DNA of 64,000 bases from an uncultured Chthonomonadaceae bacterium (GCA_963817895.1 CAWFQB010000001.1:1634021-1698020); one strand, 5' to 3'. Positions 34,111 to 52,202 are shown, counted from the first letter of the stretch. Translations and numbers: made by a program. The notes: a model not told the origin generated them from the letters alone.

Positions 34111-34240
34111 GCAAAGGATGAAGGATGAAGGATGAAGGATGAAGCAAATGCGTATCACTCCTATTTGGTTACTATGTATTAAGGCTCACATAAGGACGGG
34201 GATTGTTTTCATCCTTCATCCTTCATCCCTCATCCTTTGC
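34111..34240. repeat. Inverted tandem-repeat hairpin, unit GGATGAA / TTCATCC
   Basis: gcaaa(ggatgaa)4 immediately after stop 34110, and (ttcatcc)~4tttgc at 34208-34240. Confidence 0.85.
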
Positions 34241-35624: not shown

Positions 35625-36035
35625 TTACCAGCGATTGCCGCCGCCACTGTCGCGATCACGGCCACCGCCGCCACCGCCGTAGCCACCGCCGCCACCGGAA
35701 CGACCACCGCCGCCACCGCCATAACCGCCGCCGCCACCGCTGCGTCCACCGCCACCGCCGCCATAACCGCCGCCGCCGCTCCGCTCTTCGCGGGGCTTGG
35801 CTTCGTTGACGGTCAGGGTGCGTCCGCCCATCATCGTGCCGTTAAGGGTGTTGATGGCCGCCGTCGCTTCCGCGTCCGTCCCCATTTCCACAAAGCCGAA
35901 GCCTTTGGACTGGCCCGTGTACTTGTCGGTTACGACGCTGGCCGAGGTGACCGTGCCGGACGCGCTGAACAGGGTTTCCAGGTCGCTGTCGCTGGTGGAG
36001 TAGGGCAGTCCGCCCACATAAATACGTGTAGCCAT
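35625..36035 (-). CDS. RRM RNA-binding protein with Gly-rich tail
   Basis: RIYVGGL (RNP2), KGFGFVEM (RNP1), LTVNEAKPRE, GGGGYGGGG repeats. Confidence 0.95.
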   Translation of the reverse strand: MATRIYVGGLPYSTSDSDLETLFSASGTVTSASVVTDKYTGQSKGFGFVEMGTDAEATAAINTLNGTMMGGRTLTVNEAKPREERSGGGGYGGGGGGRSGGGGGYGGGGGGRSGGGGGYGGGGGGRDRDSGGGNRW

Positions 36036-36318
36036 TGTGCAATGGCTCCTTTCTTCATTTCCGCAAAGGGAAAACTGTTATAGCATCACCCACGGAATTT
36101 CTGAAAAAAATTCAGAGAGTATCCCGAAAAGCGGAATGACGCCGGGAGCAAAGAGGGAAAGCCTATGTTTATCTTCCCATCTGGAACAAGCGGCAGGAAA
36201 GGAGAAAAGAGCCTTGCACAGGGGGCAGCAACACCATCGTCACTACGGGCGCGTCGCTGCATCAGCAAACAGGGTTCCATCAAGTTTCATGTCGTCGCAC
36301 AGACACGAGTATTATACC

Positions 36319-38710
36319 CTATTTTAGCGGGGTTTGCGCTACAGAAAATTTAATTTTCAGCGAAATATCGCCCCGCGCCCGCAATTTTAGCGTCAAACTG
36401 CCCGCCTGAAAGCGGAAAGGGGTTGGATTGCCGTTGTATGTGACGGAAACAGGAACGCGCCCGTTCTGCGCGCGGGCGGTCAGCGTCCAATCCGTCGGCT
36501 GATTGAGATGAAAAGACAGGGAAACCTCCGCGCCATTTGGCGCTGCGCTGCCGTCGAGATATGCGGCTGGCCGCCATTCCGTCAGCAGCAGGGGCGCGTC
36601 ACGGGAAAGCAGCTCCGCAACCACATTCGGCCCAATCCAGCCGTTGTTGCGGTTGGTCTGCGCAGCGGCAACATAACTCCATAATACAGGCGTTGGTTCG
36701 CCAGGCAGGGCGCGGGCAAAAATGTGCGGAAAGGTTACATAGATGGAGTTGCCTTTGTAGGTTGTGGCAAACGGATAGACAACATCGCCTTTGTACCACT
36801 CGGGAAAGCCGCGCGCGTATTCGGCCTCGTAATTCGCCAACGCGCTTCCGCCGAACGCCTGTATCGCCGCGTACAATTCCGGCAACACGCCATCCCCCGA
36901 AAGCGCGCTCGTCGTGTCCCACGGATCGTCGTCTTCCAATCGGGCGCGGGTAAAACCCTCCATTTCGTGAAAGCCCAAAACCACGCTTTTCGGCCCGATT
37001 AAGCCCGCTTTACGCGCCCATGCCGTATACCAGAAGCGGGCCACTGTCGGCACGGCGATACGGGCGGATTGGGCGGCGAAATGCTGCTCCGCCGTTTGGT
37101 CGCCCAGCGCGCGGGCCATTTTCAGGCAGGCAAGCGTACCGCAAAACGTCGCCGCGAGCGGGTCGCCCGTTCCCGTGCTGTAACCGTGATCGGCATTCAC
37201 AACCGTCATCCACGCCCAATCGTCGCCAAGATCGAAGTAGCGATAAATGCGCCGTACATCGTTCCAATGCGAACGGACGAACTTCCAATTGCCCGTATAC
37301 TGCGCGTACTTGTACAGTCCATACAGCGGCAGCGCGTCGCCCCAGTCCAGATCATAACGCCGTTTGTTGGGTCCGGCAATGAAATACGTCCACAGATACG
37401 ATTGCCCGCGTAAACGGCTCGGTTTCCGTTTTCCATGTGGCGGGTTTGGGCGCGGGGAAAGCCTTGCCTGCCCCGTCGTTTTGCGGCAGAGAAGTGGCAG
37501 ACGGTTGGGGCGCATACGGCGGAAGCGCGAACGCAAGCGGCAGATAACGCTTCCACGCGGCCTGCAATTCCATTTTTCGGGCGGGAGTCAGATATGTCAG
37601 GGCCATTTGCGCGTTCGCCATGCCCGCATAGCCCAGGTCAACCGCGTTGCTCGCCCAATCGCCGCCAAGATGCCCCACCAGTTCATTCAGCAGGCGGGCA
37701 TTATCTTTTGCCTTGCTCTCGTTCGCGTTTGCGGTGTGGGCGCGAATATAGCCCCGCTCGTCCGTTGGCGGCACGGGCAGAGTATAGCGCAAAACATTGC
37801 CGCGAACATACGCGAAATCGCCCCATTTCGTCCTGCAGTCCGTAGAAACCAGTTCGCCTTTGAGGGAGACCAGGTAGCCATGCGCGCGGGCAAACGCGAG
37901 AACGGGCGGCAGGGGCGCGATGTTCTCGCCGTCGTGATTGCGTTGGTAGGTTTCCGTGAAGGTAACGCTTTTGCCGTCCGGGGTGAGTTGGCTTTCGTTG
38001 CGTTCGCGGACGGGCAGGGGAATGGAAGCCCACCGCCAGCACTCCATCCGCAGTTCGGCGCTTTGCAGGCCAGACAGATTCGGCGCAAGTTCGCGTGAGC
38101 CAAGCGGCGTTATAAATCGAACCTCGCCGATCTCCTCCTGCGCCTCCATGCGAAATTCAGCCTGATTAAGCCACAGTCCGTATTGAGTTTTCGTTGGCTG
38201 AAAGCCAGGACGAAACGCAATCAGCAGGCACATGGAAGCCCGGTCCCGCCGCCGCAACACCAGACCGTCGCAAAAGCCCGATTTCCGAATGGGCGGCAGG
38301 CTGGTCATAACTATAGGAATCGGCTTGCCAGTATTGTCGGAAAAGCGCAGCCGCATTTGCCTGCCATACGTCGCGCCAAAGCCGGGGTACAGCAGGGTAT
38401 AGCGCAGTTGTGTCGGCTCGTCCGGCCCGCCGTTCACAAGCCGCAGAACCTTGCCCGTCGTATCAATCGCCGCTACCTGCGCCCGCGCTACATTCGCCGC
38501 GCCATCGCCAAATGTCACTTGCAGGGGCGTGTTCGCAGGCGGCGCGGCAAATCCCTGCGGCGACACATTCAGCGTCAGCAGGCCATCGTCGTTGAAGCGT
38601 CCGAACCGTCCGAACTGGCGGGAAGCGCCAACCGGCGCGGATTGCGCGAATGTAACGACAGGCAAAAGCAGCAACAAACCGAAAGAGAACAGGCGGATAA
38701 AGAGGTTCAT
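36319..38710 (-). CDS. Large secreted hypothetical protein, possibly a helical-barrel glycoside-hydrolase-like fold; indel near 37405
   Basis: Signal peptide; ORF 37352..38710 (...WKTETEPFT) continues as GQSYLWTY...DLDWG...LYGLYKYAQYTGNW in ORF 36319..37536. Confidence 0.65.
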
Positions 38711-38725
38711 ATTCCGAATCAGAGT

Positions 38726-38773
38726 ACCTCACCCCAACCCCTCTCCTTGCCGCGCAACGCGCCAGGAGAGGGG
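38726..38773. repeat. REP-like palindrome, copy 2
   Basis: acctcaccccaacccctctccttgccgcgcaacgcgccaggagagggg. Confidence 0.75.
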
Positions 38774-38780
38774 CTTTTCA

Positions 38781-39395
38781 TTATGCATGCGCAGAAGTTT
38801 TGCGATTTTTGATGAACCCGACCACTTTTTTGCCGGTTTTTACGCTTATCCAAACCATTAGCAGAGCGCAGGAGATCAGGATAACTGCGAAGATAAACGC
38901 GACAACGGGCGCGTGGATAGCCATCCAGACTCCCCCCGCCACAACGACATCTTCAAGCAGCGAAATGCCCAGGTTCGCGCTGCCGCCATGAAACGGGGCC
39001 AACACGGTGGATTTGGCGCGGGTGACGGCTTTACCGGCGTGAACGGAAAGGGCCGAGCCGCCGCCCACAATCAGGCCCAGAAGCATTGCCAGTTTGGGAT
39101 CAAGATGGGTGAGCGTGGCAGACGCGAGAATAGCCCCGGCAAGCGGGCGAGCGAGTGTGCCAACCACATCCAGAGCATGGTCAATCACAATCACTTTGTC
39201 GCCCAAAAACTCCAGCAGCGTGGCAATGCCAAGCACAATCAATACATCCACATGTGTCAGGAGGGCAAATTCAGGATTGATAGGCACAATCCCCATCCGC
39301 GCCAGCAACCCGAGCAGCAGCAGGGGCAGACACGCCCGCAGCCCGGAACACGCTCCCAGTGAAACGCCCATCAACACCTGCAATCCCGTACTCAT
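38781..39395 (-). CDS. DUF4126 membrane protein
   Basis: GLRACLPLL, LEFLGDKV..IDHALD, RPLAGA, N.GISLLED. Confidence 0.85.
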   Translation of the reverse strand: MSTGLQVLMGVSLGACSGLRACLPLLLLGLLARMGIVPINPEFALLTHVDVLIVLGIATLLEFLGDKVIVIDHALDVVGTLARPLAGAILASATLTHLDPKLAMLLGLIVGGGSALSVHAGKAVTRAKSTVLAPFHGGSANLGISLLEDVVVAGGVWMAIHAPVVAFIFAVILISCALLMVWISVKTGKKVVGFIKNRKTSAHA

Positions 39396-39422
39396 GTTCC
39401 CCTCCCACGCTCATTACGGGAA

Positions 39423-39548
39423 GGATAGGTTTCAGGTTTCAGGTGTCAGGTGTCAGTTCACCTTCTCCTTCTGATGCTGATACCAATATGAAGAAGGAGC
39501 AGAAAAGGAATTGCCTGAAACCTGAAACCTGAAACCTGAAACCTATCC
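39423..39548. repeat. Inverted tandem-repeat hairpin, unit TTTCAGG / CCTGAAA, overlapping the RNAP-like stop
   Basis: ggataggtttcaggtttcaggtgtcaggtgtcag vs ctgaaacctgaaacctgaaacctgaaacctatcc. Confidence 0.85.
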
Positions 39549-42500
39549 CACAAACAACCTCCCCACCGCATCCCGCAACGGGTCGGTTTCCTTCATTGCG
39601 GCGGCGCGGGCGAACACGAGGCCCGGTTGGGGTGAGCGCATGGCGCGGGTAAGGACGCCATACCCTGTATGCGCCTGTTCCGCGAACAGGGCTTTCTGAA
39701 CGTCAATCCATTGCTGAGAACCCCGGGCAATGCCTTCGCGCGCGCCGATGCAGTTCATAAAGAATTCCTGCGGCGTCAGGCCGTCGCGGTAGCCATGCTG
39801 AATGGTAAACCGGCTGCCGTTCAGAGTGGACACGACGCCCTGCGCTCCAACTACTTTCAGCAGCAGGCGCATTCCACCCCGCGCGCCACTGGCAAGCGTG
39901 AGCAGAACCGGGTCCGCAAGTTCTGCCGGCTGCCGCATCCGTTCGGCAATGCGGGCCGCGAACTCTTCCAGCCAGGCGTTCCACGCTTCGGGCGCATTGC
40001 CGATGGGACGCGGCGGGGCGGGCCAATTCTCGCCCAAAAACGGGCCGTATCCGCTTCCCATGCCTCGCGCCACCTCGAAACCGCGCATCGTAAGCGCGTG
40101 AAGAGTGTTCAAAGCGGGTTCGATTGCGGAATCGCCTTCTCGCGTCAGGCGTTGGCGCAACGGTTCTTCCAGCGCTTTTCGCGTCAGCAGGCCGTTTTCC
40201 TGCGCAACTGCAAAGCCGGTAATCTGCTCGAGTTCGGTTCGGCCTTCGGGCGTTCGCGTCAAAAACGCCAGCCCCAGCCGCGCGTCGTGCAGGGGACGGA
40301 GCAGAGACAGCACATCAGGGTCGCGCCGCAAATGGCCTGCAATCGTCAGGGTTTCGCCCGCTTCCTTTTGCGCCGCATCCGTAACGGGCAGAAACACGTT
40401 TGCCAGGTCGCCATCGAAGTCCAGACCCAACAGACCGCAGGCGAAAGGGTGTACCTGAATAGCCTGGCCGGGAATGCGAACCGGATGATAAGCCACAATG
40501 CCGGTTGCGGTCATCGTGGGCGCGCGATTAAGCAACACCCACGAACGCGCCATAACCTCATCCAGTATTTTTGCCGCTTCTGTAGTACGGGCTTGAACAG
40601 GTTCCATGCTGCCCATTTCACGCGCTGCAAGCGGAGCGAATAGCGTCCACGCGATTTCTTCCGGCAATCCCACCTGATCTGGTAACAGGTCCTTGCCAAT
40701 GGCAGCAACGGCTTGCCCGCTGAACTGCGTCCGCGCGCTGAATTTCAGATGCGTGGGCGTCAACAGAACCTCAAAGAACGCTTGCAGCCGCGTTTGCTGC
40801 TCACCCCGCGCCTGCGCCAGCAGGCTGTCGGGAGCCTGTCCCGCCCGCATCCGCGCCAGTCGCGCATTGGCTTCGACAAGCGCCCCATACTCGGGCAGTT
40901 CCACAAACGCGCCAATTCGAGACAGGGATATTTCCGGGTTCCAGGGATGCGGCGCGGGTTCGGCCAGTTCCAGTATCTCGCCTTCCGGTTCCGAAAGATG
41001 AAACGCCAGCCCCTGTTCGGAAAGGTCGCAGGCAATACCGCCACTTGCAAGCCGACGCGCCACGTCCGCCCACTGCGGCGCGGGGGCAGTGGACTGCTCG
41101 ACCACCCCTTCCGCCAGACGCTGCGGCAAGCGTTGCGGCGTCCGTTCGCGCCGCCGCCCGCGTGTTGAATGTTTCGCGGATGTTTTCATTTGCGCCCGCC
41201 ATACGCAGCACATGAAATTCCGCCTGCCCAATGCGCGAACAGTGAGCGGGCGAAGCCGTCGCGCGTATTTTGTCCCCGGCCACATGGTACAGCCGTCCCC
41301 AGTACACCCATCCAACGGTACCCGGCGCGAACATGGGCGGGCCATTCTTATCTATGGTCAGCGTTCTCATGCCGCTCGGCGGCAATCCGGCAGTCATTAT
41401 CCGCGCTTGTAACTCTGCATCATCGGGCGCGGCAAACGGCGGCACGATAATCGGTTCGCCCTCCGCTTTCGCCGCGCAGCTCAAAACCGCCTCGCGCGTT
41501 TGCCCGAACGTCATACGGCTGTGCAGGCTCATCGGGCTGAAGGCCAACTCGACGGGCGTTCGCCGCTCGGTTCCATCGCTGTTGGTTTCCAGCAGGTGCG
41601 GCATGGCGTCATCCGGCACAATCCGCGCAACCACGCCCTTGTTGCCATGCCGATTGCTCAATTTGTCGCCCGGTTGTATGGGAAAGGGGTAGTTCAGCCG
41701 TCGGGCGCAGGATTGGCTGATAAGAATACTGTCATCGAATGTGTCTATTCCGCCCGCAACATACGCGGTGAGCAAATTGCGCCCGCACCAGAAGTCCGGC
41801 GCGTTGGTGGGTTCGCTCCCCGTTTGTATCAGCGCGGGTTCCGGGTCGGGCGGAACAATCCACTGCCATAACATGTTAGCGGCCATGACCAGACGGCACG
41901 AGTCGTTGTGTTCCAAAAATGGAAGCATCCGCGCGTTCGCGCCCAGATTGCCGAGCGGACTGTCGTCTACAACAATCAATTTGCCGTGGCGGATTGTCGC
42001 GCCCGTCGCTACCACCAGAATCCGCCCCACATTCGGGCCTTCCGGGGTTTCTATGGGACACGTCGCGCCCGAAATGTCCCTGCGTGAACATGCGCGGATT
42101 GTCCGGCAGGACAATGCGGCGCAATTGCGTGTGCCGTTCCAGCCAGCGCGCTTTCGCTTCCCAGGGCATTTTCGGCACTGCCTGCCCGCGCAATCGAATG
42201 AACTCCTCAACCCATGTTTCCAGCGGCAGCCACGTTCGCAGCAGATTTTCGTCCCATTCCAGTTCGAGCGGCGCTTCGCCCAACCGGGCCGCGCAACAGG
42301 CGTGTAGTTGCTCGCCCGCGCACTGAATGTCGGCCTGCTCCAATTCGTCCGAAGACGCTATCGGCAGCACAACATACTCTTTCCCATTCACTACAAACAC
42401 CCCATCCGCATCCGGCTGCGGCACATTGGTAAACGTCACTTTCAGCGTGTTCGCGCCCACTCCAATCTCAATCGTCACCCGACACGCATATTCCCCCGCG

Positions 42501-42691
42501 CTTTCCACGCCGTACCCCACCAGCGGAACCCGGCTGACCAGCAATTGCGGCAGCGTTTCCCGCAAAAACCGCGCATAACTCGCCCGATGCCAGGGCGCGG
42601 CAAAGGATGAAGGATGAAGGATGAAGGATGAATCCACTCCTGCAATCTCCTTTTCTCCTTTTCTCCTTTTCTCCTCTTCTTCTCTTCTCAT
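39543..42691 (-). CDS. Minimised single-chain RNA polymerase beta-beta' fusion homolog (~1048 aa after correcting two +1 indels near 42064 and 41125)
   Basis: RpoB motifs in order: DGVFVVNG, HFGR.CPIETPEGPNVG, LPFLEHND..R.VMAANM..Q, TFDDSILIS, IQPGDKLSNRHGNKGVV, SRMTFGQ, GWVYWGRLYH..DK. Then RpoC motifs in order: LAEPAPHPW, FSGQAV, VLLNRAPT, GLDFDGD, SGARG, YRDGLT..EFF...GAREG, ETDPLR. Confidence 0.88.
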
Positions 42692-43275
42692 TCTTCCTCT
42701 CCTTGTTCCGCGTTCCAGCAGCGGCTTAGATGTTTACGGGCGTGGTACAGGCGGGACTTGACCGTGCCTTCGGGGATGTCGAGCAGGTCGGCAACGTCGC
42801 GCAGTTCCATGTCTTCCTCGTAGACCAGGCGCAGCATGGCGCGCCGGGCTTCGGGCAGGCCGGCAACCAGACGGCGCAGGCGATGAGACTCCTCGGATTG
42901 CAGGGCGCATTGTTCCGGGGTGGGCGTAGCCGTGTCCAGCATCCACGCCGGGGGCGCATCGTCCGCGCTGTCCGCGTCACCGGATTCCAACGATTGTTCG
43001 CGCCGACGCTTGCGATTGCGCAGGTCGTTGAGGGCAAGGTTGGTGGCAACCCGAAACAGCCATGATTTTACGGTTCCGCGTCCGTCCCACTGCTCGGCCC
43101 GCGTCCATACCCGCAGCAGGGTTTCTTGCAGCAGGTCATCCGCCACATCGGGCTGACGCGCCATGCCGATCAAGTACCGCCGCAAGGTATCCCGATACCG
43201 CGCTGCCAGTGTTTCAAACGCCTGCCCATTCCTCGCCGCGATTTTCGCCAGTAGTTCTTCATCCGACAGCATCAT
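42688..43275 (-). CDS. ECF RNA polymerase sigma factor, coupled to the RNAP-like gene
   Basis: SDEELL...AFETL..RY, ADDLLQET.LRVW, KSWLFRVATNLALN.LR, VADLLDIPEGTVKSRLYHARKHL; ATGA overlap at 42688-42691. Confidence 0.95.
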   Translation of the reverse strand: MMLSDEELLAKIAARNGQAFETLAARYRDTLRRYLIGMARQPDVADDLLQETLLRVWTRAEQWDGRGTVKSWLFRVATNLALNDLRNRKRRREQSLESGDADSADDAPPAWMLDTATPTPEQCALQSEESHRLRRLVAGLPEARRAMLRLVYEEDMELRDVADLLDIPEGTVKSRLYHARKHLSRCWNAEQGEEE

Positions 43276-43395
43276 TGCTTCCTTAATAAATGGAGAGTGC
43301 CGCGAAGGAACGCGCCGAAATCATTTAGCCGCAAATCTGCGCGAATGGACACAAATACCGGAAACCGTGTCACAATACCTGATACACCGCTCAGG

Positions 43396-43482
43396 ACACC
43401 ACAGGAGAAGCAACGGTTCAATATCCGTGTTGTTTTCTTTTTTCTCTGTGAAACCTCTGTGTCTCTGCGCCTCTGTGGTGAA
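43396..43482. repeat. Degenerate palindromic/low-complexity repeat element upstream of the sigma gene
   Basis: caccacagga... vs ctctgtgaaacctctgtgtctctgcgcctctgtggtg; same style as the 12820-13006 element. Confidence 0.4.
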
Positions 43483-43595
43483 GGTTTCAAAGTCCGATAC
43501 ATTGGCGAAACCCTCCCCGCTTCGCGCCCGTAGTGGCTTCGGACGCCTTCTCATGCCATAACAATAAACACCTGAACACCGAGAAATTAGCTGAT

Positions 43596-45326
43596 ATGTT
43601 CCGAAAAATTCTGTTGGGCTGCGGCCTGCCGTTATTGTTGGTTGTCATCATCGCTTCCGTTGCCGCGCGAAAGCTGCTGAAGCCCGTACCTACGCCGGAA
43701 CGAACCGAAACCGCGCAAAAGGGCGACGTGGAAATCAAGGTTGTGGAAACCGGGCAGATCGAACCCCTGCGCAAAGTGGACGTGAAATCCAAAGCGGGCG
43801 GGCGTATTTTGCGCCTGTTTGTCGAGGAGGGCGCGACGATACGGCAGGGCCAGATACTGGCGACCATTGACCCGCAGGAGATCAACAGTCAGGTGGCCGC
43901 TCTGCGCGCGCAGTTGTCCGCGTCGCAGGCGCGGCTTGCCGCCGCCCGCACCAACGTCGGCTACCAGCAGTCGCAAACCAGCACGGGCATTGACCAGTAC
44001 CGCCAAAACCTCGCCGCCACGAAAGCGCGGCTGGAAAGCGCGGAAGCCGAAGCCCACGCGCAGCCCACGCTGACCGCGCAAACTGTGGACATCGCGCAGT
44101 CCAATCTGGACGCGGCAAAGGCGCAATTGAAAGCGCAGCAGGACAATTTCAATCTGATGGCGCAGTCCACGCACCCCAATACGGTTGTTTCCGCGCAGGC
44201 CGCTTACGATCAGGCGAAATCGCAACACGCCAACGCCCTTAAAAATGTGAAGCGTCAGCAGCAGCTTTTGTCGAAAGGCTTTGTGTCGCAGCAGGTCGTG
44301 GACAGCGCGCAGGTGGATGCGGATGTGGCCGATTCGCGCATGACCGAAGCCAAAACTCGGCTTGACCGCATGGAACAGACCAACAATTTAGAAGAGGCCA
44401 ACCTGCGCAGCCAGATTGCAGCCGCGCAGTCGCAGGTACGGCAAATGGAGGCCGCGTTCGCGCAGTCGAAATCCACCACATTGCCGCTGACCAAGCAGCG
44501 CGATCTTGACAGCGCGCGGGCCGCGTACGCGCAGGCGAAAGCGCAACTGCAGCAGGCGCAGGCGGGCGTCGCGCAAAACTCTATGCGGGGTTCGGACGCC
44601 CTTGCCGCCGCAGCGGAAGTGCAGCAGATACAGCAGCAGTTGAATGAGCGTCTGGTTAATCAGGGCGACACAACCTTAGTCTCGCCCATGACCGGCGTGG
44701 TCACGAAGCGTTACGCGGAAGTGGGCAACCTGATTACGTCCGCTATCGCGTCGTTTTCTTCGGGTACGCCCGTCTATCAGGTGGCAGATACAGGTACGAT
44801 GCTCGTCAAACTCAATGTCAATGAGGTGGACATCGGCAAGGTGAAGCGTGGACTCGCCGCCGAAGTGACCATTGACGCTTCCAAGGGCGCGAAATACGAC
44901 GGGCGCGTCCGCAAAGTGTCCCCGGCGTCGCTGACCGATGCGAGCGGCAGCAGCGGCACGGGGCAAAGCGTGGTGCGCTTCCCCGTCGAAATCCAAATTA
45001 CGCCCAACCCGAACCGCCCGATGTTGCGTCCGGGCATGAGCGCGCGCTGCGCCATCATCGTGGCCCGCCGCCGCCAAACCCTGCGCCTGCCCGTCAACTG
45101 CGTCAACACCATTGACAACAAAAGCACAGTTCAAATCGTCACCAGCGCGCAGAAGAACGGCGAAACCGTTGAAACCACGCAGCCGCGCGATGTGGTTGTC
45201 GGACTGCGCGGCGACGACTTTGTAGAGATCGTGTCCGGCCTGCGCGAAGGCGAAAAAGTCCGGCCCAATCCCTACTCCGGTCCCAAACGCAAAGAGATTG
45301 ACTTTGATGCGGGGGACAAGCGTTAA
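43596..45326 (+). CDS. MacA/HlyD-like efflux periplasmic adaptor with a long coiled coil
   Basis: TG.IEPLRKVDVKSKAGG.I, SPMTGVV, VNEVDIGKV, LRPGMSA, VEIVSGL.EGEKV. Confidence 0.9.
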   Translation: MFRKILLGCGLPLLLVVIIASVAARKLLKPVPTPERTETAQKGDVEIKVVETGQIEPLRKVDVKSKAGGRILRLFVEEGATIRQGQILATIDPQEINSQVAALRAQLSASQARLAAARTNVGYQQSQTSTGIDQYRQNLAATKARLESAEAEAHAQPTLTAQTVDIAQSNLDAAKAQLKAQQDNFNLMAQSTHPNTVVSAQAAYDQAKSQHANALKNVKRQQQLLSKGFVSQQVVDSAQVDADVADSRMTEAKTRLDRMEQTNNLEEANLRSQIAAAQSQVRQMEAAFAQSKSTTLPLTKQRDLDSARAAYAQAKAQLQQAQAGVAQNSMRGSDALAAAAEVQQIQQQLNERLVNQGDTTLVSPMTGVVTKRYAEVGNLITSAIASFSSGTPVYQVADTGTMLVKLNVNEVDIGKVKRGLAAEVTIDASKGAKYDGRVRKVSPASLTDASGSSGTGQSVVRFPVEIQITPNPNRPMLRPGMSARCAIIVARRRQTLRLPVNCVNTIDNKSTVQIVTSAQKNGETVETTQPRDVVVGLRGDDFVEIVSGLREGEKVRPNPYSGPKRKEIDFDAGDKR

Positions 45327-45412
45327 GATACGAGATACGAGATACAAGATAGGAGTAAATGCGCTCAACTCGTACCTCGTATCTTGTATCTCGTATCTCG
45401 TATCTCGTATCT
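45326..45412. repeat. Inverted tandem-repeat hairpin, unit AGATACG / CGTATCT, with a mirrored variant unit
   Basis: agatacgagatacgagatacaagatag directly after TAA; tcgtatcttgtatctcgtatctcgtatctcgtatct. Confidence 0.85.
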
Positions 45413-45421
45413 ACCTAACCC

Positions 45422-46672
45422 ATGAACTTCCTCTACTCCATACAAACGGCGTTCGACAATTTGCTCGCCAATAAAATGCGGTCACTGCTGACCATGCTCG
45501 GCGTGATTATCGGCGTCGGGGCGGTGATCGTCATGGTGGCGATTGTGCAGGGCGCGTCGGCCCGCGTCACGGGCGAGTTTCAGCGGCTCGGGTCGAGCCT
45601 GATTATCATCTATTACGAACCTGACAGCAAGGATCGCAAAACGTCCACGCGCCGTCTGGACGGCATGACGATGGACGACGTGCGGGCGATTGAGCAGCAG
45701 TGCGACCTGATTAAAGGCATCTCGGCGGAACTGCCCATTCCCGGCGGCACGGAGAATGTCAAGCGCGGCGACAAGACCATGGCGGGAACCATCAACGGCG
45801 TTTTGCCCGCGTATGAGCAGTTACGCAACGCGCAGGTTTCACAGGGGCGCTTTGTCAACCAGTCGGATGTCGAAACGTGGGCCAAAGTGTGTATCATCGG
45901 GGATAAAATTCGCGAGGAGATGTTCGGCAAGGCCGATCCAATCGGCCAGAACATCGAAGTGAGCGGGCAAAACTTAACCGTTGTGGGCGTATTGGCGAAG
46001 AAGGGGCGTTCGCTGGAGGGGGACGCGGACAAATCCATTTACGTTCCGCTGACGACGGTACAGAAGCGGTATCTTGGACGCGAACTGGTGGGCGTGATGT
46101 GGGCGGAACCCAAAGACCCGACCAAAATCAATCTGGCAATGGAGCAGGTGTGGCAAAATCTGATGCGCCGCCACGACAACATTCCGGGTTTCCACATTGA
46201 CAGTCAGGAAAACATCCTCAACAGCATCAACAAAATTCTGGCCGTGTTCGGAATCGTGTTAGGTTCCATCGCCGGACTTGCCCTCCTTGTGGGCGGCATT
46301 GGCATTATGAACATCATGCTCGTCTCGGTCACGGAACGAACCCGCGAAATCGGCATCCGCAAAGCCATCGGCGCGAAACGGCGCGACATTCTGCTGCAAT
46401 TCCTGATCGAATCGGCAACCGTTTCCGGCTTGGGCGGCTTGATCGGCATCGCGTCCGGCGCGGGTTTCGCCTATACCGTCGGCTACCTGACGCAGTTCAT
46501 CCCCTCCATGACCGATCCGCAAACGGGCGCGAAAGGGCTGTCCATCTATCTGGCTCCCAGCGTGTCTTTGGGCGCGTTCGCCTTCAGCGCGTTCGTGGGC
46601 GTGTTCTTCGGCATCTACCCCGCCATCCGCGCTTCCCGGCTAGACCCCATAGAAGCCCTCCGCCACGAATAG
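45422..46672 (+). CDS. MacB/FtsX-like ABC transporter permease
   Basis: [57 protein letters not shown]. Confidence 0.93.
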   Translation: MNFLYSIQTAFDNLLANKMRSLLTMLGVIIGVGAVIVMVAIVQGASARVTGEFQRLGSSLIIIYYEPDSKDRKTSTRRLDGMTMDDVRAIEQQCDLIKGISAELPIPGGTENVKRGDKTMAGTINGVLPAYEQLRNAQVSQGRFVNQSDVETWAKVCIIGDKIREEMFGKADPIGQNIEVSGQNLTVVGVLAKKGRSLEGDADKSIYVPLTTVQKRYLGRELVGVMWAEPKDPTKINLAMEQVWQNLMRRHDNIPGFHIDSQENILNSINKILAVFGIVLGSIAGLALLVGGIGIMNIMLVSVTERTREIGIRKAIGAKRRDILLQFLIESATVSGLGGLIGIASGAGFAYTVGYLTQFIPSMTDPQTGAKGLSIYLAPSVSLGAFAFSAFVGVFFGIYPAIRASRLDPIEALRHE

Positions 46673-46804
46673 CCCGACTGTTACAGCGCGGCATTGGTGT
46701 GGATTGTACCTGATGCCACTTTGACAATACAGCCGTTTGTGGCATAATAATCCTATAGCAAATGGATTGACCTGCTGACGCATGAATAGGGCGGTAACTT
46801 TGCC

Positions 46805-47104
46805 ATGACACAAACCGAACAAGCCAATGAACTTTTTCTTGATGAAGTGCGACAGATTCCTGGCGTACTGATTGCAAAACCCTATGGCGGCAGAACGCTT
46901 GCCGAGCAATCCATTGCGGTTGTCGTGCCTGCCTTGCGCACACCTACCTCCCGGCAAGTGTTTGAATTGGAAGGCGAAACCCTGCGTTCGTTCCCCGAAG
47001 CGCGTCTGGAAGTTCGCGTCATCGGCCTCAAAGAGTGTAACGTTGATTCCTCTCAGCTTACATCATTTATGAAGCCTGATTATTCTGATCTTGCCATTGG
47101 ATGA
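46805..47104 (+). CDS. Small hypothetical protein
   Basis: 99-aa ORF with an upstream TTGACA...CATAAT promoter-like sequence. Confidence 0.5.
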   Translation: MTQTEQANELFLDEVRQIPGVLIAKPYGGRTLAEQSIAVVVPALRTPTSRQVFELEGETLRSFPEARLEVRVIGLKECNVDSSQLTSFMKPDYSDLAIG

Positions 47105-48788
47105 GAAGTTTTCTCACGCTTTCATGCTTGACCCTATATGTGATCTCACGTCCTTTCAAAACTTGAAGATGATTCACATGCGATTGTAATACTTTCTCCG
47201 CATATAGTTTTACCTGCGCGTCAATCGCTTGCATGGATTGATTATAGTCAGCCTTTGCTGCTATAATAGCCGCTTCTATTTGTGGTTTGTTCTTCCTTTT
47301 GCGCCATATTTCCAATGGATTAGTTAAACCCCATATTGGTTGAGAGTGTACTTCCTCAGAGGCTTCGGCAACGGCATTATTATAGCGACGTTTGATTATC
47401 TCGAAAGTCTCACGGTAACGATAGTTTGTGTCCTTGATGCGACGAACCATTTTATCCACAGAACCATACTCTGGCTTCTTTGCCTCTTCAAGGTATCGTA
47501 ACTGAGTGTCTTCCAAAATGGCGAGACAATGCTGTTGCGCACTTTCAAGATGTTGAACCACTACCGTCTTGACCAGTTCAGGCCATGCCCGACATGAGCG
47601 AAACAGTTGCCGCAACCCCTCCATTCCCAAATCGCTGATTTTCTGTAGGTTCACTTCAACATTGTATTGAACTTGAGCGAGTTCGGGTATGTTCAATCCT
47701 GCGAGTTGTTCAACTTTATGCGCTTGGTGCAGTAACTCCAGACACTGTTCCAGTTTTGCGGTTGTATTTTCTCTGTCCCGTTCAAGCCGTTGCGTGTAGT
47801 TACTGAAAAACTCTGTCAAGATTTCGGAGAAATCTTCTTCTGCTAGAATTCTAGCCATAGCAGAAGGCCGGTGTTCCATATATTCCCGTAAGAAACGCAT
47901 TGCCTCTTTAGTGTTATGACTCTTTGCGGCGTAACGCGCAGCATCAAATATGGCTTCCGAGTCATGGTACAAACTGTAGTACAGGCTTATCGTTTCAAAT
48001 GCAGCAGCAAACTTCCCCTGTAGATATTGCATGTGGGCAAGGTGCCGAAGATTATTTTCATATAGCCTGTTTACAATATCGTCACCGCATAAACGACGGG
48101 CGCGATCAAATGCCTGTTCTGCATCAACATAGTTATTGTCCTGCTTCCACAACAGCCAGCCAATATTGAACCACACAATTGGATCTTGTCTGCCAATATG
48201 GTTATCAGCCACAACGCGGAAGAGGCGCATTGCATCCTTGTAATCTTCGTCTCGATCTTGACCTGTGCAATTCATGCCCTGATTGAGCCACTTAATGGCG
48301 TTGTTACGCAGTTCAAGAGATTGCGTCTGATAAGGGGTAGATAAGGTGTTAGAAATTTCTTGCAATGCCTGCTGTTGCGCGAACATCTGATCGGCAATAT
48401 TTGCAAATTCCTCCAAAAGGCGCGCTTGCAAATCATCAACTGCCGCTTCAATATTTTCGAGGTGTGCAATAGTTTTTAGACTTGATCTATTGAGGTTCTG
48501 GACACCAACGTTTATCTGCGCAACATCATTCTGCATCATCCCCATACTGTATTCAACATCACGCAGTAAGTTGTTCGTAATGGATTGCTGATGTGCAACT
48601 TTCTCCAAGTTCTGAACTGTGGCTGCCGCTTGAACATACTGCTGGCGCAGAGCAAACGCTTGGTAATGAAGAAGCTGAGAACTGTTCTGCGCAATGACGT
48701 TGAGATGGTAATGGTTGTCTATATCGCGAAAACGCTGAAGTTCGCTTTGCCCTGATTTGACGATATATGGAATCAACGAATCTGACAT
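47067..48788 (-). CDS. TPR-containing coiled-coil protein (AT-rich, accessory)
   Basis: Helical repeats (VWFNIGWLLW....YVDAEQAFDRA; LRHLAHMQYLQGKFAAAFE) flanked by coiled coils. Confidence 0.7.
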   Translation of the reverse strand: MSDSLIPYIVKSGQSELQRFRDIDNHYHLNVIAQNSSQLLHYQAFALRQQYVQAAATVQNLEKVAHQQSITNNLLRDVEYSMGMMQNDVAQINVGVQNLNRSSLKTIAHLENIEAAVDDLQARLLEEFANIADQMFAQQQALQEISNTLSTPYQTQSLELRNNAIKWLNQGMNCTGQDRDEDYKDAMRLFRVVADNHIGRQDPIVWFNIGWLLWKQDNNYVDAEQAFDRARRLCGDDIVNRLYENNLRHLAHMQYLQGKFAAAFETISLYYSLYHDSEAIFDAARYAAKSHNTKEAMRFLREYMEHRPSAMARILAEEDFSEILTEFFSNYTQRLERDRENTTAKLEQCLELLHQAHKVEQLAGLNIPELAQVQYNVEVNLQKISDLGMEGLRQLFRSCRAWPELVKTVVVQHLESAQQHCLAILEDTQLRYLEEAKKPEYGSVDKMVRRIKDTNYRYRETFEIIKRRYNNAVAEASEEVHSQPIWGLTNPLEIWRKRKNKPQIEAAIIAAKADYNQSMQAIDAQVKLYAEKVLQSHVNHLQVLKGREITYRVKHESVRKLLIQWQDQNNQAS

Positions 48789-48879
48789 CTTTAAATTCCT
48801 CATCAACAGCATTACGGCGTTGTAGACTAAAACCTTACAAACTTTCTCACAGCCAGACGATATGCTGCATATTCAGGTA

Positions 48880-49281
48880 TCAACGAATGAAGAAAATAGG
48901 GGCATACCCAAGCGGTACAAGAGCGTCGAACTCGCCGTGATCCGTTGTAACGACCGTACCTGTCAAGCCGCGGGCGAGTGTCAGGCAGAAGGCATCCGGT
49001 AAAGACATGGGATGCCTGCCTTTAAATAAGGCAGATTCTTTCCAAAACTCGTTGTCGTGGTCGTAGCAAGGAATTACGCCAGCGTCCATCAACGTTTTCA
49101 GCGCTGCCTCCGCTTGTGCTACGCCGCCACGACGAAAGTAAATGTAGTATATCTCCGTCAGGTTAAAGAAATGCGCGTAGCATTCGCCTAAATTGTCAGC
49201 CAAAATATCAGCAACGATAGTTGCGCCCTTCTCACTGCTCAAATACGCGACCATCGGACCGGCATCAAGAATATGAATCAT
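48880..49281 (-). CDS. PIN-domain (VapC-like) toxin
   Basis: HILDAG, NLTEIYY, MSLPDAFCL, VVTTDHGEFD. Confidence 0.85.
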   Translation of the reverse strand: MIHILDAGPMVAYLSSEKGATIVADILADNLGECYAHFFNLTEIYYIYFRRGGVAQAEAALKTLMDAGVIPCYDHDNEFWKESALFKGRHPMSLPDAFCLTLARGLTGTVVTTDHGEFDALVPLGYAPIFFIR

Positions 49282-49586
49282 GGCTGCAAATCCTCTATCT
49301 GTTGTTCTTCTTTGCGCTTATCTGCCTGCCGTTCGCGGTGCAATTCTTCGACCGCTGGGCCTAAATGCGCAAATTTGCCCATGCCTGCGCGGATGGCTTC
49401 GATACGCACGGTTTTCTGTGCGTCTAATGCTGTTGGAGGTTCAATAGTTCGCGGAATAGAAACGGCCTCATTGAGTGATGCTTCTTCCGCAGGAACAATC
49501 AGCAGAAGATTTTTATAGCGACGGAACTCTTCTGCGCGGCCTGCAAACTGCTCCCATGTGCCTTGAAAAATTTGCGGTTGTGCCAT
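49278..49586 (-). CDS. Putative antitoxin upstream of the PIN toxin
   Basis: GAAAGGA RBS, MAQPQIFQGTWEQ...; ATGA overlap with the PIN gene. Confidence 0.65.
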   Translation of the reverse strand: MAQPQIFQGTWEQFAGRAEEFRRYKNLLLIVPAEEASLNEAVSIPRTIEPPTALDAQKTVRIEAIRAGMGKFAHLGPAVEELHRERQADKRKEEQQIEDLQP

Positions 49587-50192
49587 GCTGTTCCTTTCTG
49601 AAACACACCTTCTGGATTTGAGTGTATATGCGCTTTTATTATAGCATGCTGTGCCATTGCGGATTAACCCCATATTGGCTAAAAGGCTGATCCTATCTGC
49701 ATCCATACTTACTGCTAACTTCGGAATAAAGTCGTTTCCCGATCATTTTATGCCTACACGTACAGAGAGCCGTGTAATGCTTGGTGCATGAATTTTCCTA
49801 GTTTTTTGGCGCATTGGCACTCGAATAAAAGTTTATTGCCTGCTTGCTTGTGAAAAGACGCGAAATGTGGTACAATAGAAATGAGGGTGTTTCTACTCTC
49901 ATTTGGTTCGCCTCATCCCCTGAGCCCCATATCTTCCAACCAATTAAACATCTATGACCGTATAAGTTAGTGTACAGGACAGTGTCTTGTCACATTTCTC
50001 CTATTTGTCGCCTCCTGTTTAACGTCAGACTTTTACCTGCGTTTTGCTTCACTGCTGCGCCTCTCTTGGATTTACTATGTCTTTTCCACGTGCCCCACCC
50101 ATATTGTGCCTCATCTATCCTCGTTTAACTTCGGCTGCCACGCAGTCACTCCCCTGCCATCTCTGGCAAACCTCTTTGAGAAATCTCCCACC

Positions 50193-50471
50193 ATGCAAAA
50201 GAATAAATTCGAACTGAATATGGACCCATTGCGCTGTGTGTGCGAGTTAGTTGATAAGGCCGCACACTACACCTTACCTGAATGGATGCGCGCCGCAGGA
50301 ATCATAATCGTCCTTGCTGGCGTTTATCGCTTCATCAACCTGCCTGCATCCCCGCCTCACTCACCTCAAGCGGTTTCCGCGCCTCATCAATCGAGCAGTA
50401 GATCAAAACCTGCTCATCTCCACCGAACAAGCCGTTCCAAGAAGAACTCGAAGCGTAAAGCAAAAGCCTAA
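50193..50471 (+). CDS. Small membrane protein with basic tail (hypothetical)
   Basis: One TM helix followed by a Lys/Arg-rich tail. Confidence 0.4.
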   Translation: MQKNKFELNMDPLRCVCELVDKAAHYTLPEWMRAAGIIIVLAGVYRFINLPASPPHSPQAVSAPHQSSSRSKPAHLHRTSRSKKNSKRKAKA

Positions 50472-50574
50472 CTCGCTGTCGCATCGGGCGTATAGTCTCA
50501 TTCGATTGTGCGCCCCGGTACATTATGCCCCTATAATTCGGATAATAGTTTAAGACGCTGGCTGTGTTACTAAC

Positions 50575-51018
50575 TCACCCCGGTGTCGTATATTCGTATT
50601 CGCCAATCGGAGTATCGGAAACGGGCTTGTCCCAATCCTGTATCATAGACTGCATCAGAATGTCAACCGGGATGCCCAGTTTTTGATACAGACTGCGAAT
50701 CATATCTATTGTGAGAGGTTCGCGCCGTTCCATGACAGCCTTGACATGGCTGCGTCCTCCGAGTAACTCATCTAAAACTTCCTCTTGTAAGCCCCGGCTG
50801 TCCAGATAATGCTCTACCGCGGCGATTGGGTCAGGCAAGCCGATAGGATAATGTATTTTCTCGTAGGCTTCCACGAGCGTGATTAAAATTTCGAGACGAT
50901 CTCCCTCTGGCGTATCAGGCTCAGATTCGAATAAGGCGTAAACTTCTGCCAGAGCTTGATCGTAATCCGCCTCGGTTTTAATTGGATTGATGTTCATACT
51001 TGAAATTTGCCTGTCCAT
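50575..51018 (-). CDS. higA: HigA-like HTH antitoxin / transcriptional regulator (orphan)
   Basis: PIKTEADYDQAL, DTPEGDRLEILITLVEAYE..HYPI..PDPI.A, LTIDMIR.L...LGIP.DIL. Confidence 0.85.
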   Translation of the reverse strand: MDRQISSMNINPIKTEADYDQALAEVYALFESEPDTPEGDRLEILITLVEAYEKIHYPIGLPDPIAAVEHYLDSRGLQEEVLDELLGGRSHVKAVMERREPLTIDMIRSLYQKLGIPVDILMQSMIQDWDKPVSDTPIGEYEYTTPG

Positions 51019-51107
51019 TGAGCCTGAATTGCTTTATTATGACATATTGACTGTGCCGAACGCCTTACGGTTCATGCGTCTTTCGAGTACCTTCAATTGG
51101 TATTTGC

Positions 51108-51286
51108 CCCGGCTTCCACATTGACAGTCAGGAAAACATCCTCAACAGCATCAACAAAATTCTGGCCGTGTTCGGGATCGTGTTAGGTTCCATTGCCGGA
51201 CTCGCGCTGCTTGTAGGCGGCATCGGCATTATGAACATCATGCTCGTATTGGTCACGGAACGAACCCGCGAAATCGGCATCCGCAA
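51108..51286 (+). pseudogene. Duplicated internal fragment of the ABC permease gene
   Basis: 11 mismatches in 179 bp vs 46184-46362 by manual alignment, 10 of them synonymous. Confidence 0.9.
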
Positions 51287-51385
51287 CTCCTTATCCAAAA
51301 AAGCCTGGGAGAAGGGGATTCGCGCATACACGAAGAATTAGCTATGGCACAAACCTGACAAGCGAATAAAGTTTTTGTAGCCACA

Positions 51386-51412
51386 TGTATTTTTCTCAAT
51401 TCGCGCGCCTCT
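51386..51412 (+). promoter_or_regulatory. TGTAT-N17-CCTCT motif (candidate ECF promoter) upstream of the zf-HC/CHAT operon
   Basis: The same bipartite motif recurs at 56785-56812 and 57759-57786. Confidence 0.5.
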
Positions 51413-51551
51413 GCTGTCTGTGCCGTAGAGCGCGGGGCGACTAATGGAACCGCCGCGCCCATAGCGCAATCCAAATTCGTCGCGTTGTGAAAGCGTTGCG
51501 CTGTGGAAACGTTGGCAGATTGTACCGCGAAAGAATTGCGCTGTAAAAAGG

Positions 51552-52202
51552 GTGAATATAGATGAGGGGAGCGAACCGGTGAAGCGTTGCGGAATAGCCT
51601 TTGAAACATTGGCGGATTATCACGAGGGGAAAGCGGATGCAAGCGTATCCGCGCGGATTCGTGAACACCTCGACCGGGATTGCCTCCATTGCCGGCAGAA
51701 CCTCGCCTGGCTGGAACGCGCAACGGGTACGCTGCGGGAAGCGCCGTTCGTACAGGTTCCCGAAGCCGCGCTGGAACGCGCCCGCGCTCTGTTCCGCGAA
51801 AGGTATCCCTCCCCTGCCACCCTTCCCAATCCCCTGTTTGCCTGGCTGGCGCAACTGCAATTCGACAGCCGCAGCAGCGCGCCGATGCTGGCCGGGGCGC
51901 GTGGCATGAAGCGCGAAGGCGTTCAGCTTGTATACAGCACCGAGGTTCACGACATTGATCTATTTCAGGAGTTGTCCGGGGAGGGAACCTGGTATCTAAT
52001 CGGGCAAGTGATGCCGCGAGATGGTGAAGCGACCATTGTGCCGCAAGAGGTTGTTCTGACAGAGCGCGGCGGCAATCGTCTCACGTTCGCGCCGGAAAGC
52101 GGGGAGTTCCATCTGCCTGCCATTCCCGAAGGCATTTACGACATCGCGCTGCGCCTTGCGGATGGCGAAATCACGCTTCCGGGCGTGGGAATCGGGCAAT
52201 GA
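51552..52202 (+). CDS. Soluble zinc-finger (zf-HC2-like) anti-sigma-like protein with C-terminal carboxypeptidase-regulatory-like beta domain
   Basis: C......LADY.EG......IREHLDRDCLHCR; FDSR....LAGARG; GEFHLPAIPEGIYDI; no TM segment. Confidence 0.7.
   Translation: MNIDEGSEPVKRCGIAFETLADYHEGKADASVSARIREHLDRDCLHCRQNLAWLERATGTLREAPFVQVPEAALERARALFRERYPSPATLPNPLFAWLAQLQFDSRSSAPMLAGARGMKREGVQLVYSTEVHDIDLFQELSGEGTWYLIGQVMPRDGEATIVPQEVVLTERGGNRLTFAPESGEFHLPAIPEGIYDIALRLADGEITLPGVGIGQ

Follow-up and report, generated by a model that had tools for sequence, protein, structure and literature searches.

In a 64,000-nucleotide (nt) stretch of DNA from an uncultured Chthonomonadaceae bacterium (GCA_963817895.1 CAWFQB010000001.1:1634021-1698020), hereafter the window, two genes follow one another on the minus strand between 39543 and 43275. 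The upstream gene encodes a sigma factor of the extracytoplasmic function (ECF) type and the downstream gene a protein related to RNA polymerase (RNAP), here called mini-RNAP. Judging from the sequences compared here, the two genes form an intact module under selection, made up of the ECF sigma and a chain of ~1050 amino acids (aa) in which a trimmed beta subunit is fused to a trimmed beta' subunit. The mini-RNAP family is real and conserved. We lean slightly towards the view that the module forms an autoregulated sigma and a single-chain mini-RNAP holoenzyme. We favour a putative alternative polymerase over a protein that purely binds sigma as a mimic of RNAP, since the catalytic residues do not vary within the family.

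The mini-RNAP gene and protein

The mini-RNAP gene occupies 39543..42691 on the minus strand, with its stop codon at 39543-39545. As the original prediction had it, three overlapping minus-strand open reading frames (ORFs; 41876-42691, 40801-42210 and 39543-41345) join with two +1 corrections into 209+1+312+1+525 = 1048 codons, that is, a protein of ~1048 aa without two extra bases; alignment to intact homologues and the DNA itself place the breaks. The RpoB motifs do precede the RpoC motifs: the second ORF matches Pfam Rpb2_3 (7.8e-5) and Rpb2_6 (6.4e-27), the third Rpb1_2 (3.4e-15). The fusion had been held to be independent of the corrections, and it is, since the beta C-terminal-like segment and all the beta' motifs are in a single frame, that of the third ORF. 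The lack of rplL or rpsL neighbours was also correctly noted, the genes around mini-RNAP being of DUF4126, HlyD and MacB/FtsX types, and the separate full-length rpoBC that an accessory copy calls for is present as a full-size rpoB-rpoC pair on contig C3 of the same assembly. Given this pair and the non-rpl neighbours, mini-RNAP is an accessory paralogue and not the housekeeping rpoBC operon. It differs from housekeeping rpoB and rpoC not only in lying outside the rplL-rpoBC operon but also in scoring far below every NCBIfam rpoB/rpoC cut-off. No NCBIfam model is reached at its cut-off by mini-RNAP, neither the equivalogs TIGR02013 (166.7 bits against 801.15) and TIGR02386 (114.2 against 963.5) nor the fused models PRK14844 (167.8, the best score, against 4632) and PRK09603 (143.8 against 5372).

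Two frame breaks interrupt the gene in the window. The first is one extra base at 42063 (minus strand) in GHFGR-x-CPIETPEG, without which the protein reads GHFGRACPIETPEG, as it does in a genome of the same genus (G002). The second is one extra base at 41122 (minus strand), at ...TLAA/RLAEG within the beta C-terminal segment. The breaks raise the possibility that mini-RNAP is a decaying rpoBC duplicate, a pseudogene, and the G002 copy likewise has one frame change, at a third position that differs from both breaks in the window. We compared the region 39400-43400 with contigs (not reads) of four public runs, X1-X4, at a depth of 2-5, X3 and X4 covering neither 42063 nor 41122. The extra base at 42063 is missing from the sole X1 contig and the sole X2 contig that cover the site, the latter being 189 nt long with just 1 other difference. 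The extra base at 41122 is missing from the sole X1 contig covering it, which represents a relative with 47 other differences in 600 nt. Other indels listed in the public-run contigs over the region number two, both inside a repeat between the sigma and mini-RNAP genes.

The source assembly (7.48 Mb) is indel-rich even in essential genes, and this accounts for a completeness of 81% in just 14 contigs. Its only full-size rpoC (C3:352700-357580) has two frame changes within the first ~430 codons, a class-I aminoacyl-tRNA synthetase gene is split over two frames at C3:322260-324265 and a DNA polymerase III alpha gene is split between frames at C1:12-808. The ratio of nonsynonymous to synonymous substitutions (dN/dS) between the mini-RNAP genes of the window and G002, whose products are 74% identical, is 0.206 (dS 0.88) over 1069 aligned codons, so that divergence is not neutral; the sigma gene has the same constraint (0.199 against G002). 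We read the frame breaks as something other than lesions, because they are absent from the contigs of other runs, because essential genes are broken as well and because dN/dS is 0.206; most likely both are sequencing errors. With hundreds of intact relatives also known (see below), a pseudogene is extremely unlikely, and the decayed rpoBC copy that the original prediction itself put forward as the counter-case is largely refuted.

The anatomy of the protein was taken from a family profile aligned to Escherichia coli beta (E 7.4e-78) and beta' (2.5e-54), with PDB-profile matches of 1.1e-78 and 2.2e-54, respectively; structural elements are named as in E. coli RNAP. The E. coli beta residues matched are 119-147 (weak), 491-581, 652-707, 786-822, 1054-1148 and 1177-1342, the match running through residue 1342, the last of E. 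coli beta. Those of beta' are 76-129 (weak), 267-512, 569-639 (weak) and 713-799, together with a tail at 1330-1354 (weak, E 0.012). All the following elements are encoded on the minus strand. A remnant of the beta N-terminus, the protrusion base (42368..42595), reads PWHRASY ... DGVFVVNGKEYVV and has a weak profile match to beta 119-147, GTFVINGTERVIV. It is followed by the fork, or Rpb2_3, region CPIETPEGPN ... PFLEHND (41902..42060; beta 491-581 and 652-707) and by the beta active site (41635..41742; Pfam Rpb2_6; beta 786-822 and 1054-1148), where TFDDSI stands at the position of E. coli E813/D814 and GDKLSNRHGNKG is the start of the beta double-psi barrel. The equivalent of the beta C-terminus (APAPQWADVARRLASGGIACDL; 41022..41087, by alignment to beta 1342) continues in frame into the beta' part. 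There we find the clamp helices, a coiled coil (40761..40892) aligned to beta' 267-309, then DFDGD (40407..40421; Pfam Rpb1_2), the catalytic Mg2+-binding aspartate triad of the beta' double-psi barrel, which is NADFDGD in most members, and then the F-loop and bridge-helix region SGARGG ... IGAREGIARG (39720..39890), aligned to beta' 713-799. The C-terminal tail VFARAAAxxExDPL...RLFVG (39546..39617) is near-invariant in the family. From a weak sub-profile match (E 0.012 against two sequences) it is likely the equivalent of beta' region H (E. coli 1330-1354), in which case mini-RNAP would skip beta' ~800-1320, a stretch comprising the trigger loop, sequence insertion 3 (SI3) and the jaw.

What is kept comprises both double-psi barrels, the beta N-terminal remnant, the fork region, the ED/DD pair, GDKxxNRHGxKG and the beta C-terminal module, and on the beta' side the clamp helices, part of switch 2, the (NA)DFDGD barrel, the F-loop, the bridge helix and the tail resembling region H. 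Lost from beta are the lobe, the flap and the stretch around fork loop 2, with nothing aligned to ~150-490 or 830-1050, and from beta' the zinc-binding N-terminus, the rudder (a 25-residue gap), the rim helices, the trigger loop, SI3 and the jaw, with nothing aligned to 800-1320. In sequence the protein has the marks of the two-barrel superfamily, namely a beta'-type DFDGD barrel, a beta-type basic barrel with an acidic pair and a bridge helix between the two barrels. Compared with a bacterial RNAP core and its ECF sigma, the module has the same clear beta/beta' homology, both barrels, DFDGD, the bridge helix, clamp helices and fork region, and a sigma2-sigma4 ECF partner with an ECF-type promoter. 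It differs in being one chain of ~1050 aa instead of ~2750 aa plus alpha2 and omega, and in being without the lobe, flap, zinc N-terminus, rudder, rim helices, trigger loop, SI3 and jaw.

In an alignment of 128 sequences the D-G-D of DFDGD is invariant and its first D is at least 90% conserved, and at the clamp helices the N, R, R, P and L positions reach at least 90% conservation within the family. Within GDKxxNRHGxKG, the residues G, D, R, G and K do not vary either in this alignment or in one of 84 members. An AlphaFold2 model of a 1055-aa homologue, built from the 128-row alignment, has a predicted local distance difference test score (pLDDT) of 94.3 and a predicted template modelling score (pTM) of 0.91. 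Only the beta/beta' linker, residues 538-546, falls below a pLDDT of 50. Two long helices (598-615 and 620-641) stand at the clamp-helix position with pLDDT >94, and a 33-residue helix (968-1000) is the bridge helix. In a Foldseek search bacterial RNAP beta and beta' chains came first (E ~1e-23 to 1e-20; TM 0.31-0.40 on query length).

The partner sigma and its promoter

The sigma gene (42688..43275, minus strand) encodes 195 aa with regions sigma2 and sigma4 only (Pfam Sigma70_r2 9.2e-16, r4_2 1.3e-15), and its product reaches the NCBIfam model TIGR02937 of the ECF (group 4) superfamily with 101.7 bits, the cut-off being 42.9. The mini-RNAP ATG at 42691 overlaps the sigma TGA, giving the ATGA overlap already described in the original prediction, and in most loci there is such an overlap of stop and start (ATGA or TGATG) or a gap of a few bases. 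We examined 25 genome loci, consisting of the window, the first four relatives and 20 more. An orthologue of the window sigma lies directly upstream on the same strand in 24 of them (phmmer E 2e-32 to 6e-98), while unrelated ECF sigmas in the same genome loci match at 1e-12 and 4e-9. The locus without an adjacent sigma, on contig C322 of genome G011, has an IS200-type transposase nearby; a second mini-RNAP copy on another contig of G011 has the sigma, with an ATGA overlap into the mini-RNAP N-terminus. In two relatives without mini-RNAP (G001 and G005) no sigma orthologue was found, the best generic ECF matches being at 3e-19 and 2.6e-22. A metagenome scan with a family-specific pattern yielded 80 loci; in 36 the N-terminus falls outside the locus, which leaves 44 that are evaluable. 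An adjacent sigma is present in 41 of these 44, or in 35/37 non-redundant loci when seven likely duplicate pairs are allowed for, and it is missing from three, namely L316 and two loci that are identical copies of the IS200 locus of G011. The association of homologues with a sigma, on which the original prediction staked its reading, is borne out by both sets of loci. These comparisons place the window sigma in an orthologous group that is dedicated to the mini-RNAP module.

Apart from this pair, all-against-all clustering of flanking ORFs gave no conserved neighbour in the genome loci, and no neighbour recurs in the metagenome loci, where the largest cluster has 5 of 29 non-duplicate loci, all close relatives. 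An adjacent cognate anti-sigma gene is typical, if not universal, for ECF sigmas. None was found next to the sigma in the genome or metagenome loci, mini-RNAP being the only conserved neighbour. Mini-RNAP takes up the usual anti-sigma place, position +1 behind the sigma, and might be an RNAP mimic, an anti-sigma-like sink that would bind sigma via the retained clamp helices without transcribing. The sigma's only evident target is its own operon, which would be the arrangement of a feedback loop. A sink, however, needs neither invariant catalytic residues in both barrels nor a bridge helix nor ~1000 conserved residues, and the homologue is modelled at pLDDT 94.3 across the whole chain, with dN/dS at 0.21 along the whole gene. 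We therefore consider a mimic improbable.

The module has an ECF-type promoter (43395..43420, minus strand), with a -35 element TGAAC at 43416-43420, a 16-nt spacer and a -10 element GTGTC at 43395-43399. GAAC-N16-GTGTC occurs upstream of the sigma in 24/24 genome loci (with N15 once), usually as TGAACC...GGTGTC, and the same promoter is found in 35/37 evaluable metagenome loci. From promoter to sigma start there are ~140-144 nt in the window (and ~140 in G002) and 29-74 nt in other genome loci. The shape is that of an ordinary ECF promoter; we infer that its own sigma would use it, and hence that the module may be autoregulated.

The way in which the putative holoenzyme would work can be sketched as follows. 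The sigma would fire the module promoter, at first on the host core enzyme, and the overlapping stop and start codons would lead to sigma and mini-RNAP in roughly equal amounts. Through its region 2 the sigma would then dock on the clamp helices, to which this region chiefly binds in bacterial RNAP, and so assemble with mini-RNAP. The resulting single-chain holoenzyme would make RNA from DNA with no need of alpha, omega, a flap or a trigger loop. A trigger loop appears dispensable for a two-barrel enzyme, because YonO has no trigger-loop homology and yet synthesizes RNA as efficiently as multisubunit RNAP (PMC5467207). A complex prediction for mini-RNAP residues 190-989 with their own sigma (the pair from genome G170), run without controls, scored 0.04 against a mark of 0.32 and speaks neither for nor against a complex.

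Several observations weigh against such a holoenzyme. The beta flap, which in normal holoenzymes anchors sigma region 4, is missing from mini-RNAP. The canonical ECF spacing of 16 nt is kept (N15 in one locus) and fits the host core at least as well as the mini enzyme, and the sigma resembles an ordinary ECF sigma, so that it may just work with the host core. Compared with the E. coli enzyme, mini-RNAP lacks part of switch 2, the rudder and fork loop 2, and its handling of DNA could therefore differ from that of normal RNAP. The equivalents of E. coli beta' R275, E295 and A302, which we take to be residues needed for sigma70 binding in that species, are not conserved in the alignment. Moreover, no further target of the sigma is evident. 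TGAAC-N16-GTGTC occurs 18 times in the genome of the window, compared with 8-14 times for other spacers, which is no enrichment, and the stricter TGAAC-N15-GGTGTC has two occurrences there, of which the second lies within an ORF. Five other genomes have this stricter form 1, 1, 1, 3 and 5 times against 0-3 in a reversed control, again no enrichment, and in two of the five the module's own promoter is the sole occurrence. On these counts TGAAC-N16-GTGTC does not mark a regulon.

Alternatively, the sigma might work only with the host core and mini-RNAP be the sole product of a tiny regulon, acting without sigma, whether on special templates (single-stranded DNA, RNA, primers or nicks) or as a maker of short RNAs. 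The canonical promoter geometry (24/24 and 35/37 loci), the generic ECF type of the sigma, the loss of a normal sigma4 anchor with the flap and the lack of a regulon of promoter copies in the own genome and five others are all consistent with this explanation. So is the finding that the two-barrel relatives QDE-1 and YonO-like proteins act as single chains (PMC2919709; PMC5467207). It is at odds, however, with the clamp helices being kept and conserved, and with a strict, translationally coupled pairing in which the sigma orthologue was not found in the two tested genomes without mini-RNAP. We know of no role of clamp helices beyond the docking of sigma and elongation factors. Retention of these helices and the strict coupled pairing suggest a physical partnership of sigma and mini-RNAP, and we regard a sigma-independent mini-RNAP as unlikely, though it carries real weight.

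Distribution, descent and known polymerases

A strong match to mini-RNAP was found in 4/40 relatives; in three of these it is one uninterrupted ORF (1072, 1082 and 1150 aa), in which all three Pfam domains recur. In the phylum it is present in 34/401 sampled genomes, 26/207 genera and 21/300 high-quality genomes. When 5.8 billion clustered proteins were searched with the 1072-aa homologue and 8000 candidates scored, 755 of those scored matched at E<=1e-20, ordinary rpoB and rpoC included. The best 120 matches are 998-1064 aa long, are 48-100% identical and all have Rpb2_6 and Rpb1_2, and they are annotated only as 'hypothetical protein' or by domain. They are labelled as coming from Chthonomonadaceae, Armatimonadetes/Armatimonadota, Hydrogenedentes, Roseiflexaceae, Chloroflexi/Chloroflexota and Poribacteria. 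When a profile of the last 135 residues, which are specific to the family, was run on 1.84 billion clusters at 50% identity, it matched 850, 296 and 93 cluster representatives at E<=1e-3, 1e-10 and 1e-30, respectively; many are fragments, and the full-length ones are 983-1101 aa long with the match at the extreme C-terminus. Two clusters of mini-RNAP type are also found in the ESM Atlas (1026 aa, 73 members; 1006 aa, 135 members), where the few labelled members are Chloroflexota. Intact homologues, which the original prediction had required of a functional family, are thus found in relatives, among all 120 best matches and in 296 clusters. The sigma fusions and homologues of ~1250 aa that it had also envisaged do not occur among the 120 best matches, the search having left out the 'longer' length class. 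A search of genome contigs keyed on the universal motif CPIETPEG was dominated by housekeeping rpoB and rpoC, and none of the 80 loci kept was family-like (26-50% identity).

A sporadic distribution, in 34/401 genomes and 26/207 genera, together with variable flanks and one copy beside an IS200-type transposase, is what would be expected if mini-RNAP were a cargo gene, the polymerase of some prophage or mobile element, and phages do encode trimmed two-barrel RNAPs (PMC2919709). Yet neither 50,697 phage records (by tblastn) nor 72,556 plasmid records contain a place that covers at least 80% of mini-RNAP, and the phage matches are partial and rpoB/rpoC-like. Matches in IMG/VR are 21-41% identical, and the two loci inspected have separate beta-like and beta'-like ORFs of ~900 and ~1000 aa. 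PHROGs gave local matches only and PADLOC none, and no recurrent integrase or phage gene lies alongside. In addition, a tree from the C-terminal halves of 23 copies, leaving out the broken copies of genomes G342 and G403, tracks taxonomic families, with the reservation that kin share labels. It needs 12 label changes, where the minimum is 11 and shuffled labels average 16.3, and 0/200 shuffles were as low. We consider a mobile origin very unlikely; the tree fits a descent that would be old and vertical, with many losses. In the two genomes left out of the tree (L150 in G342, a one-contig genome, and L151 in G403), mini-RNAP is broken into two or three pieces in different frames, and the sigma ahead of it is intact.

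Trimmed two-barrel enzymes are more diverse than the mini-RNAP family alone. The ESM Atlas has further fused Rpb2_6+Rpb1_2 clusters of 1221-1787 aa from metagenomes, and many viral contigs in IMG/VR (loci L157-L231) have adjacent beta-like (~900 aa) and beta'-like (~1000 aa) genes that are 21-25% identical to the family. The multisubunit RNAPs of jumbo and other phages resemble mini-RNAP in having trimmed beta-like and beta'-like parts (local PHROGs matches 1.4e-40 and 4.3e-28), but they are made from several genes, are unfused and are not paired with an ECF sigma. Housekeeping beta-beta' fusions, as in Helicobacter and Wolbachia, likewise have beta then beta' in one polypeptide (PRK14844 and PRK09603). 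They are of full size, their profiles being 2839 and 2890 positions long, and serve as the cell's only RNAP, whereas mini-RNAP is an accessory paralogue.

In design the nearest analogue is Orf6 of pGKL2, one of the yeast cytoplasmic killer plasmids, with which we compared mini-RNAP by description (PMC2919709). Orf6 is there a 982-aa Rpb2::Rpb1 fusion derived from eukaryotic Rpb2 and Rpb1 and carried on a linear plasmid. Both proteins have ~1000 aa with the beta-type half first and about half of each subunit deleted, and in both the trigger loop and rudder are missing while the bridge helix and barrels are kept; Orf6 is also described as being without the lid. Orf6 is eukaryote-derived, plasmid-borne and sigma-less, whereas mini-RNAP is bacterial-type, chromosomal and sigma-linked, its best NCBIfam matches being bacterial rpoB and rpoC, ahead of archaeal models. 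YonO of the Bacillus subtilis prophage SPbeta, again compared by description (PMC5467207), is a ~100-kDa single-chain two-barrel RNAP without a trigger loop and is an active DNA-dependent RNAP. It has few catalytic residues in common with multisubunit RNAP, is phage-borne and has no known sigma requirement. YonO-like proteins share the catalytic core only (PMC2919709; PMC5467207), whereas mini-RNAP is readily alignable to E. coli beta/beta' over ~700 residues.

Accessory polymerases are known from phages and plasmids, but we know of none of bacterial beta/beta' type with its own sigma. Full-text literature searches, which did not cover two possibly relevant reviews, returned nothing that describes a sigma together with a trimmed beta-beta' protein of bacterial type, in agreement with the view in the original prediction that no such system had been described. 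In a paper on the reclassification of ECF sigmas (PMC7826278), rpoB, rpoC and Rpb are unmentioned in the main text and in part of one supplementary file.

Textbook bacteria have a single RNA polymerase core. It is conceivable, though we put it forward only tentatively, that several phyla keep a second, self-contained transcription machine, composed of a ~115-kDa chain and a private ECF sigma, which would be sigma-dependent and would need no flap, alpha, omega or trigger loop for initiation. In that case it would be the smallest natural sigma-dependent RNAP, and the autoregulated promoter would make it a natural orthogonal expression loop whose template may be its own operon, stress-specific sites or invading DNA. 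A conserved chromosomal sigma with a fused core of 1000 aa would define a minimal enzyme for sigma-directed initiation, with no flap, no trigger loop and no alpha-mediated assembly. It would also provide structural and synthetic biologists with a small natural polymerase that sigma can program and whose cognate promoter, TGAAC-N16-GTGTC, is known. It would raise the physiological question of how a private polymerase benefits a cell when the only evident promoter is that of the polymerase itself, and it bears on the repeated trimming of two-barrel polymerases in evolution, as in Orf6, YonO and the phage enzymes.

Repeats and neighbouring sequences

Between the sigma stop and the conserved mini-RNAP N-terminus (APWH...), the window has purine-rich AAGGAG repeats followed by (TCATCCT)n heptamers (42597..42690, minus strand). 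The whole is in frame with the ATG at 42691, and the first 30 codons past this ATG consist of the purine-rich stretch and the heptamer repeat. An in-frame GTG at ~42637, which has its own AAGGAG, could be the true mini-RNAP start. A repeat of 70-120 nt is inserted in frame at this junction in three genomes, those of the window, G002 (L019) and G306 (L135), the heptamer version in L135 being (CACGACT)n as opposed to (TCATCCT)n in the window; in most other loci just 20-34 nt separate the sigma stop from the W of the WH..S motif. Further copies of the junction repeat lie at 34113-34231 of the window. Contig depth in public runs of up to 22,855, with many loose ends at 42597-42682, indicates a high-copy element. 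A second, intergenic repeat of the CACAGAGGCACAGAGACACAGAGGTTTCACAGAGAA type, which translates as TTEAQRHRGFTEK, is found at ~43440-43500 of the window, at ~352470-352520 of C3 just after rpoB, and upstream of the sigma of L019. It recurs at unrelated intergenic sites in the own genome and the same-genus genome, and is probably an element resembling repetitive extragenic palindromic (REP) sequences or miniature inverted-repeat transposable elements (MITEs).

The ORF downstream of mini-RNAP encodes a DUF4126 protein, and HlyD-type, MacB/FtsX-type and RRM proteins are further neighbours. A scan for sigma-70 promoters and terminators gave none above shuffles, and Rfam searched over 36000-46000 gave sub-threshold, hairpin-like matches only. 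Two long intergenic stretches, at 39428-39543 directly behind the mini-RNAP stop and at 45313-45411, are hairpin-forming and have sub-threshold Rfam matches to 'miRNA precursor'. Contigs of run X4 skip 56-57 nt at 39456-39514, so that the spacer behind mini-RNAP differs among strains. The RRM-domain RNA-binding protein (35625-36035, minus strand) has a long Gly-rich (GGGGYGGGGGGRS) repeat tail. Two long ORFs of 405 and 452 aa at 36319-38710 (minus strand) have no Pfam match and share 185 nt, each in its own frame; a single gene split by a further assembly indel is the probable explanation. The G+C content is 46-52% across 46000-52000 compared with 55-62% in the rest of the window, and this stretch may be foreign DNA.

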